A stretch of DNA of 64,000 nt from Octopus sinensis (taxonomy: Eukaryota): positions 131,936,001 through 132,000,000 of the forward strand of contig NC_042998.1 of NCBI RefSeq assembly GCF_006345805.1, read 5' to 3'. This document shows positions 1,075-62,892 of the stretch, piece by piece; positions within the stretch are counted from its first letter, which is position 1; every line of letters starts with the position of its first letter. Both the position numbers and the translations under genes were made by a program. The notes beneath the pieces are model-generated. The model worked only from the letters and a program-made list of their open reading frames with translations. It did no database searches and had not been told where the DNA came from.

Positions 1075-1225
1075 TTCTCTCTGCATATTTTCTCTCATTC
1101 CTTTCTGTTGAAGAGCGTAGGCTCGAGACGTAAAATACTTTCTCACTTTCCGGGCGTTAAACTAATACAGCTGCTTGTTGCTCATACATCTGCCTTCGTC
1201 TTTTGCTTTTCTGTAAATTTCAGCC
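1075..1225 (+). mobile_element. Penelope-like terminal-repeat fragment with degenerate minimal hammerhead motif
   Basis: ttt-CTGTTGA-A-GAGC gtag GCTC-GAGA-CG-TA-aaa at 1102-1135 follows hammerhead topology with two core changes; downstream sequence resembles the minus-strand element at 26090-26260. Confidence 0.5.
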
Positions 1226-1354
1226 ATGTGGGTGTGGGTGTGTGTGTGGTGTGTGTGTGTGTGGTGGTGTGTGTGTGTGTGTGTGTGTACATACATACGT
1301 ACATATATATATATATATATATAATATATATATATATATATAATATATATATAT

Positions 1355-1638
1355 GGAAAATAAGACAAAATGGTAAGATAATTTTATCGTAAAGAACATT
1401 TTAGGAGCAGTTTCATTCATTGCGAATTTTTCAACTTAGAGTAATATATGAAAAACAATTAAATCCTGGAAAAATTAAATGAAATGTTCTTTTTTTTAAA
1501 TTGCGTTTACTTTTTCCACAATTTAATTGTTCTTCATACTTTACTCTAAGTTGTAAAAGTCTCAATAGCTGAAACCGGGACTAAAATGTTCTTTTATTAT
1601 AAAATTATTTTAGCATTTTCTACCCTGTCTTATTTTCC
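1355..1638. mobile_element. Imperfect fold-back (inverted) Penelope-like element with a decayed hammerhead-like motif in each arm
   Basis: ggaaaataagaca...tgtcttattttcc termini; the arms are reverse complements along their length; lies between (TA)n tracts. Confidence 0.65.
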
Positions 1639-1800
1639 TTATACATATCAACTTGTTTGTTCCTGTTCAACCTTTCAGATATATATATATATATATATAT
1701 ATAATATATATATATATATATATATATATATATATATATATATATATATATATATATATATATATATATATATATATATATATATATATATATATAATAA

Positions 1801-2328
1801 CTAATGTAGGATAAAAAATTTTTCGGGAAAAAAATTTTATCAATGGCCGCATATCAAAAAATACCTTTAAAGGTTAAGTTTATAAATAATTTACAATATA
1901 AGGGCAAAAGAAAAATAGAATCCGGAAATGAACACTATTCAAATTTATAACTAATGTAGGATAAAATTTTTCACTTCCGGATTCTATCACAAGTTTCTAG
2001 TTCGAATCACACGTGTCTCGAGACGTGCCGAAGATTTCCTATTTTGGATATATTTGGGGTACTTAGGTCTGCTCAGGACTTGGTGTTTGCTTTTTTCCAT
2101 GGGTATGAGTAAGTATTTCACTTATATCTCGCGTATTTGCCGCTGAAGAGGAGAACAATCTTATGAATTAACTCCGAAATTGGTCCAATACGGTAATAAC
2201 GAATTTTTAGAAATTTCTATCGGTTTGTTTCGAGACGCATAAATTATAATGGTTAATTGACAATTTTTGTCTTTTTTTCGGCATATTTGGCATTAGAATT
2301 TTTCTTTTGCCCTTATATTGTAAATTAT
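1801..2328 (+). mobile_element. Non-coding Penelope-like element (same family as 52310-52907) with inverted terminal segment
   Basis: 2097-2328 aligns with 52554-52803; 1801-1915 is the reverse complement of about 52775-52905; 1886-1915 is inverted relative to 2299-2328; flanked by (TA)n. Confidence 0.75.
2134..2198 (+). ncRNA. Type I hammerhead ribozyme motif
   Basis: Stem I TATT(T)GCCG/CGGTAATA; core CTGAAGA 2143-2149; stem II GGAG/CTCC; GAAA 2176-2179; stem III ATTG-gtc-CAAT; cleavage triplet AUA (2188-2190). Confidence 0.8.
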
Positions 2329-2580
2329 ATATATATATAATAGTAGGGAATATAATTCCAAACTTACAGGGAAAAATTCAATTTAGGAATTCTAAATCAA
2401 ATTTCACAGTATATAATATATGTATATAATTTAGAGAAATAACCTCTATTAAGCAATTCAATAATGAATTATTTATGGCGAATGTTTATTCATTTTTATT
2501 GATTTTTAATAATACCCTTAAATCTATGCGATCAATATACTAGAGTGGAAAATGTCAAATCATATGTATACCTCTTCCGA

Positions 2581-2783
2581 AAGCAGCTAGCTAGTAGAAT
2601 CATTAACATGATGGGCAAAATGCTTAGCGGCATTTCGTCTGTCTTTACGTTCTGAGCTCAAATTCCACTGAGGTCGATTTACCTTTCATCCTTTCAGGGT
2701 TGATATAATAAGTACGAGTTGAGGACTGTGGTCAATTAACTCGACTTCCCCGAAGGTGCTGGCCTTGTACCAAAATGTGAAAC
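2581..2783 (+). mobile_element. tRNA-derived SINE family A
   Basis: gcaaaatgcttagcggcatttcgtc...gagctcaaattcc...aggtcgatttacctttcatcc; matches many other copies in the window. Confidence 0.85.
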
Positions 2784-59374: not shown

Positions 59375-59638
59375 ATTATATATATATAACTGAAGAAGGA
59401 AACGGAAGATAGATTTAACACTAGTCTTTATTCAGTACGACATTCAAAACATGTATGTATGTACATAGAACAAAAATATAGATTAATCACAAACAATTGT
59501 TTCACTATCAATAAATTACGTAATTTTATCTGTAGATCGTCAGATTATATATATATAACTGAAGAAGGAAACGGAAGATAGATTTAACACTAGTCTTTAT
59601 TCAGTACGACATTCAAAACATGTATGTATGTACATAGA
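59300..59638. repeat. Perfect tandem duplication, 169-bp period
   Basis: aacaaaaatatagattaatcac...gtacataga occurs at 59300 and 59469. Confidence 0.9.
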
Positions 59639-60889
59639 CTCATATATATATATATTTCACAATACGATTTGTAGAGGCAATAAGTTATCACTTCTTTTAA
59701 ACGAAGTGTATTACAAAATAGAAAGAAAATGGTGAATCTCCATTCCTCGAATTTCTCTCAAGAAAATTTACGAAACTGATATTTGCTTTTCTCTGTAAAA
59801 TTCTAACAAGTTGCTTTCTTCACAATACAAAATGGACCATGTCTATGTATCTACGTATCTATCACTGTTTCTATTTCGGTATCTCAGCTTATACAAGTGT
59901 AACTTACAAAAATCACGAGCCATGTCCACTTCAATTTCCTCCATTCAGCCATTTCTGAAAATATTGTAGAATGATTATTTTCTTACAGACAATTTTTAAA
60001 ATTCACTTTATCATCGAGCAGTTTATCCTAAATAAAGAACATGTAATTTCATAAAGCTAAGCAAGCGATGCAACGGCAGCGTTCTAACACGTTTTCTACC
60101 TCAATCTCTCGATTTCACAATAGGAAATTACACGTAATCAATTATATATTGCGTTGAGTAGTGTTGGGGCTCCACCAGATGGGATTTTTATCAATTTTTT
60201 TTTTCTGTGTCAACTTTTATTTTATCTTATTTCATTTTATTTACCTGAATGGATGGATGGATGGATAGACAGGCAAGTGGGTTTTCTGATCCTAAGTAAC
60301 CACACTCATATCCCGCAGCTCATATCTCGATCACTCACTCACCCGCTGCCCTAGATCTGCAAAGAGTAAACAGTCACGTTAGATAATCTCTTGCTGTTCA
60401 GTTTTGCCCAGAAAGCTGTGCATTGTATTACTTTACAGCTTTTGAGGTGAGTAACTAAAATTTTCTTTTAGAGCTGGACGAGTTCGTAAATGATTTTGTC
60501 ACCTGACACAAGAGTGTCACAACAATCTAGAAATTTTCGATGACTAATTGGAACCATCTATGACTTTAATCCATAGAAAAAAAATCGGCTCACTGGGAAC
60601 ACGAAATTAATTGATTTGTAAGGGATCAGCTTAAATTGAATGTTCAGGTAGTTACAGTACAGCCAACCGTCACTGGTGAGAGAGTAATACTTGGTAACAA
60701 GTACCATGCATTCGCTTATTATTATGACTGCTTGTGTAATCAAAAGCAGACGTAGACATCCACTCGGCTTCGTCACCCTTGACGCAGTTGCTGGAGGTTT
60801 AACTCTGTTGGCATCAGCTTGGCATTCATTTTCAGTGGAGTATTCTGTGACTGATACGAATTATAAGAGATATGAAAAAATATGTAATC

Positions 60890-61360
60890 AGGTGCAGGAG
60901 CGGCTGAGTGGTAAGAAATTTGTTCTCCAACCACATAGTTCTGGGTTCAGTCCCACTACGTAGCACTTTGGGCGAGTGTCTTCTACTATAGCCCCGGGGT
61001 GCAAAAGCCTTGTGCGCGGATTTGATTGACGGAAAGTGAAAGAAAACCACCGTAAACATGTGTGTATGTATGTATACATGTATTGTACATGTATGCATGA
61101 GTGTATGTGTGTGTGCGCGCGTGTGAGTATCAATGTGTGTGTGTCTTTGTGTTTGTTCCCCACCACAGCTTGACAAACGGTGTTGGTTTCTTTACGTCGC
61201 TTTAACTTAGCGGTTCTGATAAAGATACGTTAGAACAAGTAAGTACCATGCTTTAAAATAAATAAGACCTGGGAATAATTTTCTGGCTAAAAACCCTTCA
61301 AGACTGTGCCCCAACATGGCCACATTCCAATGGCTAATACGAGCAAAAGATAAAAGATAT
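60890..61360 (+). mobile_element. SINE family C
   Basis: aggtgcaggagcggctgagtggtaag...gggttcagtcccact head; tail aaaagataaaagat. Confidence 0.9.
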
Positions 61361-61612
61361 AAGTATATTATTTTGCATTTAATTTTCTTTGAGGGGACAA
61401 GGTGACTGCTTTATCTACTAAAAGTGAGTAAATTTGGCAGCTAGCTACATAATTGTATCAGGTGTCGGACTATATTCGACCTTCACCAACAACTCCGCTA
61501 TCATCTACACAACGACCAATTTATCTCTAGGTGGACGTTGTTTATTAAGGGGTACATTCACAACATTTCATACACAACTGCACCAAAGTTACCCCCAAGT
61601 GTCAAAACGATC

Positions 61613-62090
61613 TACTACTACTACTATAATACTACTACTACTACTTAGTATTAGTAGTAGTAGTAAGGTAGTAGTAGTAGTAGTAGTAGTAGTAGTAGTA
61701 GTAGTTTGTTGTTCTTGTTGTTGTTGCTGTATCAAGAAAACAACTGTATTAATAATGATAATGACAACGGTGATGATAAGAAGAGGAATGATGATGATGA
61801 TGATGATGATGATGATGATGACGATAATAATAACAATAATAATAATAATATAATAATAATAATAATAATACTAATAATAATAATAATAATAATAACAATA
61901 ATAATAAATAATATAATAATAATAATAATAATAATAATAATAATAATAATAATAATAATGATAATAATAATAAAAAATAACAACAACAAGAACAATAATA
62001 ATAGTAATAATAATAATAATAATAATATAATAATAATAATAATAATAATAATAATAATAATAGCAAGAGTAACAATATAACAATAATAAT
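61613..62090. repeat. Triplet microsatellite cluster (CTA, GTA, TTG, GAT, AAT)
   Basis: Direct reading. Confidence 0.95.
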
Positions 62091-62487
62091 TCGGTCGTTT
62101 ATCATTCATCATTTCTGCTACCTGTTAATATGTAAGGTAACGGTATCTATAGAATTGTCTTCATTAGTCAACTCAGCTTACTCAAAATAAATAATAGGGT
62201 CGAAAAGATTACTAATGGCATTTGCTTGACAACCATATTATATAGGTTACATACCATTGGAACTGGGGCCCCGGTGCTTATCCTATTCATATTCTGGCTA
62301 TCATTTACTGAGAGACTATAAAGGATTAGAAACATGGCCGGGAAAAACAAGAGTGGGGAAGGAAATAGTATGAGCAAAAGCAAGGTCGACTGCAGTAACG
62401 TAATCAGGAAGAGGAGGATATTTGTGTGTGTAGGTGTGTATGCATACATATATACATACATGCATACGTATATATATATATATATAT

Positions 62488-62892
62488 ACAATTGCAGCGT
62501 GGAAGGTGTTTATAAGCCATTTAAGAAACACACAAAAGTCGTTCGATTCACTTCAACATTTAAGTTTAATTTGTCAAAATATTTTCGTCGCTAAAATCCG
62601 CGACCTGTTCACTGACAAAAGTCCGTGCTGCATCTCGGAGATGCAGCACGGTTTTTTGTCAGTGAACAGGTCGCGGATTTTAGCGAGATGCAGCACGGAT
62701 TTTTGTCAGTGAACAGGTCGCGGATTTTAGCGACGAAAATATTTTGACAAATTAAACTTAAATGTTGAAGTGAATCGAACGGCTTTTGTGTGTTTCTTAA
62801 ATGGCTTATAAACACCTTCCACGCTGCAATTGTTTTCGTTTCAGCACACGATCTCAGATCAAATTACTTGCTATGCGAGTACATCTCCGTAA
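62488..62892. mobile_element. Penelope-like element forming a fold-back palindrome (62488-62833) with a 47-nt internal re-start
   Basis: Apex catctc-g-gagatg (62631-62643); gagatgcagcacgg restarts at 62685; arms nearly identical; (TA)n flanks. Confidence 0.85.
62702..62751 (+). ncRNA. Type I hammerhead fold with variant core GUGAACA (G3-C8); mirror copy on the minus strand at 62570-62619
   Basis: TTTGTCA-GTGAACA-g-GTCGC ggatttta GCGAC-GAAA-ATAT-TT-TGACAAA: perfect 7-bp stem I, 5-bp stem II, palindromic AATATT stem III. Confidence 0.7.

Follow-up and report, generated by a model that had tools for sequence, protein, structure and literature searches.

What kind of element has carried hammerhead ribozyme-like motifs, again and again, into the (TA)n microsatellites of an octopus genome? 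The question is raised by a 64-kb stretch of the Octopus sinensis assembly GCF_006345805.1 (contig NC_042998.1, positions 131,936,001–132,000,000; hereafter the window, numbered from its first base), which consists of AT-rich animal DNA (36% GC) dense in microsatellites, contains numerous short interspersed element (SINE) copies and has no clear gene. A first-pass annotation had reported at least eight unrelated, non-coding hammerhead-bearing elements in it, mostly embedded in (TA)n, and all the sequences that it named were recovered in place. The hammerhead-bearing repeats in (TA)n are, in our judgement, probably non-autonomous Penelope-like elements (PLEs), copied in trans by the reverse transcriptase (RT) and endonuclease of autonomous PLEs. 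Elements of this kind have been described before, and those of the window are new members. The ten sites are referred to here as A (1102), B (1403/1549), C (2134), D (2944), E (26182), F (29987), C′ (52598, the homolog of C), G (53299), H (58785) and I (62702).

The motifs were scored against local dinucleotide shuffles of 500-bp blocks, using 1,795 shuffled windows for a structural descriptor and 417 for a log-odds scan that tolerates two core mismatches; both scans were designed after the sites had been seen. The strict type I descriptor recovered two insertions only, C (core at 2143+) and I (62709+, 62612− and 62662+). Permitting one extra base before G12 also recovered F (30081−), and the relaxed level D as well, with mean matches per shuffled window of 0.00 (strict), 0.02 (extra base, maximum 1) and 0.41 (relaxed). 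In the log-odds scan, C scored 33.9 bits, F 32.0, I 28.5, C′ 25.3 and 20.8 (52603/52606), H (58857−) 21.7 and D (2950+) 20.0. The match rate relative to dinucleotide shuffles had been set beforehand as the test of the first-pass annotation, and the window gave 11 matches of at least 20 bits, in six insertions of five families, compared to 0.019 per shuffled window (best 23.4 bits). Chance matches in AT-rich, palindrome-rich DNA are thereby refuted for C, C′, F and I, and H and D score close to the top of the shuffle tail. At the level of single sites, chance does hold for the remaining four. A (1105+), E (26213−) and B (1434−) reached 12.8, 10.7 and 8.5 bits, levels at which shuffles give 1.8, 4.9 and 12 matches per window, and G (53315−) is a 3′ half only, of a type found 0.54 times per shuffled window and once more, unrelated, at 35330. 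Because A, B, E and G scored alone lie within the chance range, only C, C′, D, F, H and I are counted as secure; these six of the ten named insertions are significant on their own scores, and the "at least eight" unrelated elements come down to five statistically secure families (C/C′, D, F, H and I). A, E and G are plausible remnants of hammerheads, and B is supported as a genuine element by its architecture, not its score. Rfam agreed with chance insofar as no family matched at gathering scores; no hammerhead appeared among 18 matches in 1900–3100 or among the 150 listed of 333 matches, the E-value lists being filled with microsatellite hairpins that match microRNA models. As an account of the whole set, chance is hardly credible. 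Apart from C and C′, blastn detected no significant similarity among the families, in agreement with the earlier statement that, noted homologs aside, they share no sequence except the core and a short palindromic stem III.

The location of the sites is also distinctive. The predicted cut was followed on its 3′ side by a (TA)n run no more than 280 nt away at nine of the ten sites, compared to 20.5% of window positions (P = 5 × 10−6), and at 6/6 of the supported sites (P = 7 × 10−5), with a cut-off picked post hoc in both cases; the reported embedding in (TA)n therefore stands, except at E, which has no (TA)n run within 8 kb. Six insertions, all bounded by (TA)n, have an inverted arm placed head to head: B, C, C′, F, I and a further insertion, J (55100–55472, minus strand), which carries no hammerhead and was absent from the first-pass annotation. 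In every one of them, one arm is flush with (TA)n and the other is tailed, by 40 bp in B, 92 in C, 104 in C′, 99 in F, 59 in I and 113 in J, and the arms join head to head at variable centres, offset by the one-sided tail. B (1355–1678, plus) is an old insertion between two flanking (TA)n runs, with arms 76–78% alike and a decayed core of the U3–A8 type at 1434(−), mirrored at 1549(+). C (1797–2325, plus) lies between (TA)n runs and bears its tail on the left, inverted arm, which also has signs of a head-to-tail unit junction. C′ (52311–52906, plus), with (TA)n on both sides, is a near-perfect 246-bp palindrome plus its tail. These two insertions are ~72% alike and share end points with the arms swapped: C has its tail on the inverted arm, C′ on the direct one. 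The inverted arm of F (30452–30569, plus; 118 bp identical to 29865–29982) is the one without the tail and ends at (TA)n; I (62489–62891, plus) and J, a 130-bp palindrome plus tail, both lie between (TA)n runs. Eight further segments were tested, A, D, G and H among them, and had no long inverted arm. TA-targeting DNA elements, whether foldback elements or of the miniature inverted-repeat type, would also present inverted repeats and TA flanks, with the hammerheads incidental. Head-to-head arms with variable centres and a one-sided tail are unlike terminal inverted repeats, however, and the partial tandems, head-to-tail joints and structure-keeping variants described below largely refute a DNA-element origin, which we regard as very improbable.

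Partial tandems resembling the pseudo-long terminal repeats (pseudo-LTRs) of PLEs were found in F and H and are suggested for C. Both F and H consist of closed, non-coding, low-GC (33–35%) units of 475 and 533 bp, respectively, with one type I hammerhead each, inserted as ~1.4 units. The F monomer (29766–30240, minus) is closed head to tail with an upstream partial unit, or pseudo-LTR (30241–30451, minus), of 211 bp identical to 29766–29976, which starts 17 nt downstream of the predicted cut. In H (58627–59376, minus) the repeats are 93% alike and the second copy begins at the core (59374). Folded as circles, the units gave z scores of −5.2 (F) and −4.9 (H) relative to 60 shuffles. No tandem array with two complete hammerheads was present in the window. 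Closure of a non-coding unit shows F and H to be non-autonomous, and the same status is suggested for C; to this extent the earlier description as small non-autonomous retroelements holds, with Penelope now specified as their type, whereas the other families offer no closed unit in the window.

Family F was followed into public contigs. The unit occurred in part or whole in 20 listed runs from ten studies, and four runs were aligned to it. These contained 1,341, 796, 555 and 30 F contigs, covered 30/30 unit bins each, and all four had the joint 30240 → 29766, from unit end to unit start; such head-to-tail joints do not give the length of an array. Summed depth was mostly 2–8 × 10^5 in the two deepest runs, far above the listed low-depth contigs (15–60), which suggests copies in the thousands, depth itself being no copy number. 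The 30-contig run, guessed to be RNA, held one head-to-tail joint that shows neither expression nor circles. Some copies elsewhere were seen to run into (AT)n at 29852, near the short end point. Among 40 listed variants of 59, 11 fell within the hammerhead motif: none touched the invariant core, five kept a pair, two were a stem III pair swapped together in one contig, two lay in the internal loop, one changed C17 to A and one restored a pair at the base of stem II. The restored form is a minority (~0, 6 and 13% in three runs), and in most copies, as in that of the window, an A is left unpaired on each side. Metagenome, prokaryote-genome and viral contigs contained no match to F, to A or to the abundant SINE in pattern scans.

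These data bear on the possibility that the insertions are mostly 5′-truncated tail ends of ordinary coding PLEs, with no self-propagating short unit among them. Truncation at the 5′ end together with an inverted arm is the usual outcome of PLE insertion (PMC8557442), minimal hammerheads in animal genomes have been described as mostly single motifs and ascribed to truncated PLEs (PMC4209133), and A, B, D, E, G, I and J have no closed unit in the window. Truncation does not account, however, for the even coverage of all 475 bp of F at similar depth, its self-closure in all four runs or the closure of H at 533 bp, nor was any coding remnant found upstream of a hammerhead motif among the reading frames of the window. 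Of 269 filtered frames, 150 (the 140 longest and ten picked) were searched for domains; in line with the reported lack of an RT frame, they contained no RT or GIY-YIG domain, and their sole relevant match was a weak zf-RVT at 43892–44335(−), distant from every motif. As a general explanation, truncation is unlikely, and A, B, D, E, G, I and J may individually be 5′-truncated ends of coding PLEs instead.

How far the motifs could still act as ribozymes was judged from their predicted structures. The conserved core (3–8 pair, GAAA, U16.1 and a non-G at 17) is complete in C, D, F, H and I; it failed in A, C′, the second B arm (B2) and G, and E carries U3.G8. Stems I, II and III all close the junction in C, F and I, and mismatches occur at a stem base in D and H. 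Three motifs only, C, F and I, look cleavage-competent by sequence, so that the high "ribozyme load" inferred earlier is overstated. In hammerhead C (2137–2196, plus; predicted cut after 2190), stem I has 6 bp, stem II 4 bp and stem III 4 bp as a monomer. Hammerhead F (29987–30088, minus; predicted cut 29994/29993) has a stem I of 7 bp, a 12-nt palindromic stem III and a long, interrupted helix II, the base of which is flanked by one additional A on either side. Hammerhead I (62702–62751, plus, mirrored at 62612−) combines a 7-bp stem I, a 5-bp stem II and a 6-nt palindromic stem III with a G3–C8 core pair; in engineered ribozymes, such a pair recovers part of the activity (PMC11167929). The constrained active fold lies above the minimum-energy fold by 1.6 kcal/mol in C, 0.7 in F and 6.7 in I. 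Stem III was not always the minimal palindrome reported in the first-pass annotation: C and F can form four pairs as monomers and are modelled as possibly cleaving in that state, and I would need a dimer, as is predicted for D and H too. Hammerhead H (58785–58863, minus; stem I 6 bp) has a U.U at the base of stem II, an already known natural variant (PMC3088659), and D (2894–3155, plus, between (TA)n runs) has a hammerhead at 2944–3002 in which the core is intact but stem II and the base of stem I contain mismatches. Among relatives, stem pairs show one double change in stem III of F and one, CpG-type, between C and C′, the rest being wobble changes in unphased contigs. The helix II internal loop of F (30065–30069) is complementary over 4–5 nt to bases 5′ of stem I (30087–30091) on the minus strand, a candidate pseudoknot with which the unphased F variants are compatible; such pseudoknots are common in hammerheads (PMC3088659).

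A mechanism can be proposed from published PLE biochemistry. In vitro, the purified PLE protein of an anole introduces nicks into AT-rich DNA on both strands and extends both, using two internal RT start sites whose spacing equals the tail, and does not require hammerhead cleavage (PMC11167929). By analogy, a tandem transcript of the octopus unit would be bound in trans by PLE protein, both strands of an AT-rich or (TA)n target would be nicked and extended, and reverse transcription would start at one of two fixed internal sites 60–270 nt downstream of the hammerhead. One arm made from each start site and joined head to head would give the mirror pair and its tail. The hammerhead would be a pseudo-LTR inheritance that releases monomers or sets the RNA 5′ end, and the template for insertion would likely be uncut RNA. 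Of the five informative insertions, all but F (C, C′, H and I) continue upstream past an uncut hammerhead, and the C′ hammerhead (52602–52654) is damaged identically in both arms, with U4 changed and stem II weakened; cleavage therefore seems dispensable, and the hammerhead is probably not needed for insertion. Alternatively, the shared damage in C′ may stem from homogenisation of the arms after insertion. A general rule by which the cut sets the 5′ end was considered and rejected, as only F fits it, the other four continuing beyond the cut in the upstream direction. Because a decayed core sits in both near-identical arms of C′, it is the PLE arm-and-tail architecture, not the ribozyme, that defines these insertions, contrary to their earlier designation as ribozyme-defined. 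In a separate observation, ATTG occurred within the last 10 nt of 6/15 element ends at (TA)n and of 1/43 other non-simple TA flanks (Fisher P = 7 × 10−4, the motif having been chosen after viewing), frequently preceded by CCT or CCC; it is possibly a priming signal common to unrelated families.

The RNA template is the only respect in which this proposal differs from that of classical non-LTR retrozymes, in which hammerhead-excised monomers circularise and the circles template complementary DNA of more than unit length. Retrozyme circles have been demonstrated in coral, mussel and axolotl (PMC7229834), and the low-GC closed units of F and H with circular-fold z scores of about −5, their 1.4-unit insertions, the F 5′ ends near the predicted cut and the modelled monomer-competent stem III of C and F would all suit such a cycle. 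Set against it are the lack in the window of a two-hammerhead array, the working criterion of a 2026 preprint (10.64898/2026.07.22.740005), the inverted arms and tails, which point to PLE priming, and the decayed core in both C′ arms together with the mispairing at the base of stem II that most F copies show, which suggest that copying took place without efficient cleavage. We consider circular templates quite unlikely.

Copying in trans by PLE enzymes from uncut RNA has difficulties of its own. Both F 5′ ends lie 11–17 nt downstream of the predicted cut, which argues that cleavage did have a part in shaping the F template. Tails of 40–113 bp exceed the published 30–40 bp, target-site duplications are unreadable within (TA)n, and in C, F and H the active fold is not the one of minimum energy. 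No autonomous partner was seen among the searched frames of the window. Closed units are known for two families and relatives were examined for F only, where several variants come from a single contig and the lack of core changes in 11 variants, taken by itself, falls short of significance.

The comparison with known systems nonetheless places the octopus elements close to described PLEs. Many unrelated hammerhead families per genome were reported from metazoan PLE pseudo-LTRs in 2014 (Cervera and de la Pena, PMC4209133). Hammerheads there are likewise type I, with an extra base after A9, a palindromic stem III and opposite-strand pairs 100–700 bp apart; the variants given include a UUGAAAAA core as in B, U3.G8 as in E, a 10-nt palindromic stem III in Aedes and one AGAAA row like F (row order uncertain), as well as a 450-bp tandem unit in Drosophila willistoni. 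By difference, its 56-motif alignment has no cephalopod and no G3–C8, helix II is often long and interrupted here (C, D, F and H), and C and F may fold as monomers. A natural G3–C8 pair is not listed in section 8 of PMC3088659 either, and other published lists may have it. A PLE insertion comprises a pair of direct pseudo-LTRs with an inverted pseudo-LTR next to them, and has a tail at one end (Pen2a_Av, PMC3846280; PLEs generally, PMC8557442), and F resembles Pen2a_Av in its two direct repeats, adjacent inverted copy and tail. Partial tandems, a 5′-truncated inverted copy, AT-rich or (TA)n targets and retention of the uncut hammerhead are shared with endonuclease-bearing PLEs in general (PMC3846280, PMC8557442, PMC11167929), which differ in having a frame between the repeats and tails of the shorter length given above. 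Microsatellite bias is described for Hydra, Neptune and Naiad PLEs, the Naiads being without canonical hammerheads. Non-autonomous Chlamys PLEs such as MRC1 (PMC8557442) also form non-coding units with pseudo-LTRs and head-to-tail insertions, but most Chlamys have no hammerhead and insert into (CA)n or (C)n.

Non-LTR retrozymes were described in 2020 (Cervera and de la Pena, PMC7229834, the available text of which does not mention octopus or other cephalopods) and interpreted as non-autonomous PLE derivatives by Li, Clavereau and Pollet in the 2026 preprint cited above, where the 35 species covered in the accessible text include no mollusc. Like them, the window units are short, non-coding and low in GC, with one type I hammerhead and high copy number, and published family lengths are 51–972 bp; unlike them, they are dispersed as 0.5–1.4-unit insertions with inverted arms and no two-hammerhead array in the window. 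In coleoids, Penelope expansion has been reported (PMC8967140), and active Penelope families are annotated in Octopus vulgaris, with ribozymes not mentioned in the portion available (PMC13282606). The literature searches yielded no cephalopod report of such elements; supplements or the O. vulgaris repeat library may list the families.

The remaining hammerhead-related features are more decayed. A (1076–1226, plus), with (TA)n on its 5′ side, is minimal-hammerhead-like with A6 and A14 changed, a stem II of 4 bp and a stem I of 3 bp, and E (26183–26216, minus) is of the same kind, with stem II broken in addition to its U3.G8. G (53032–53340, minus) retains GAAAC, an 8-nt palindrome and a stem II remnant, and ends in (TA)n. 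An older 3′ piece of family I without a hammerhead lies at 44866–45006 (minus; 70% alike, E = 5 × 10−13) and has the same distal end point as I. Beside F, at 29568–29765, two 90-bp units with (TA)n between them are possibly another small TA-targeting insertion. Near H, a hammerhead-like core start at 59389–59470 and 59558–59640 (plus) points away from H across a short (TA)n and is followed by GAAAC, without a stem II; it belongs to a 169-bp local duplication. At 393–690, a 298-bp segment flanked by two long (TA)n runs has a core-like start and a 5-bp hairpin without the GAAA half, and no second copy of it was found elsewhere in the window.

Generic repeat finding in the window was dominated by microsatellites. 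About 19 copies of one SINE-like family, 70–90% alike and some in tandem (for example, 2577–2782, 18931–19356, 21848–22501 and 25213–25637), and a second such family (31060–31489, 45452–46453, 60882–61348 and 63088–63474) were recognized; no transfer RNA genes were found in the window. LINE-like (long interspersed element) 3′ remnants lie at 43892–44335(−) and 58173–58502(+), the weak zf-RVT match applying to the first only, for which two protein searches returned no relatives. A 1.4-kb tandem duplication at 14404–17200, with unique parts 100% identical, is either recent or an assembly artefact. At 10865–12331, inverted repeats of ~227 bp (86%) flank a broken frame without a Pfam match, which resembles the remnant of a Tc1/mariner transposase.

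How many such motifs the genome contains is a separate matter. Supported sites occur once per 11 kb and intact-looking ones once per 21 kb in this single, selected window, where four of the named sites crowd within the first 3 kb; the earlier figure of one per 7 kb cannot be transferred from one window to the genome. About 9,000 minimal motifs are on record for Xenopus tropicalis. Mussel has ~5,000 hammerheads and axolotl as many as 120,000 (PMC7229834). Three intact-looking motifs in 64 kb would be far above published loads, for a window that was selected and has its sites clustered at one end. A bolder extrapolation, which is possible but which we doubt, is that the host genome carries dozens of unrelated half-kilobase hammerhead units living on Penelope enzymes, with more than 100,000 intact-looking ribozymes (one per 10–20 kb), among them a natural G3–C8 core and long-helix-II forms missed by Rfam, and with young families present as circular RNAs.

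Through the anatomy of insertions rather than phylogeny, these elements extend the model of retrozymes as non-autonomous Penelope elements to an animal lineage not sampled before. Young, protein-free units with two fixed end points offer minimal natural substrates for studying recognition by PLE protein, and the same units are useful for questions of how inverted arms form and what the hammerhead contributes to mobility. If the density were to hold genome-wide, Rfam-based ribozyme counts, such as the 235 matches in giant squid (PMC6962438), would be large underestimates, and more than 100,000 intact-looking ribozymes, if true, would be about ten times the densest published counts.

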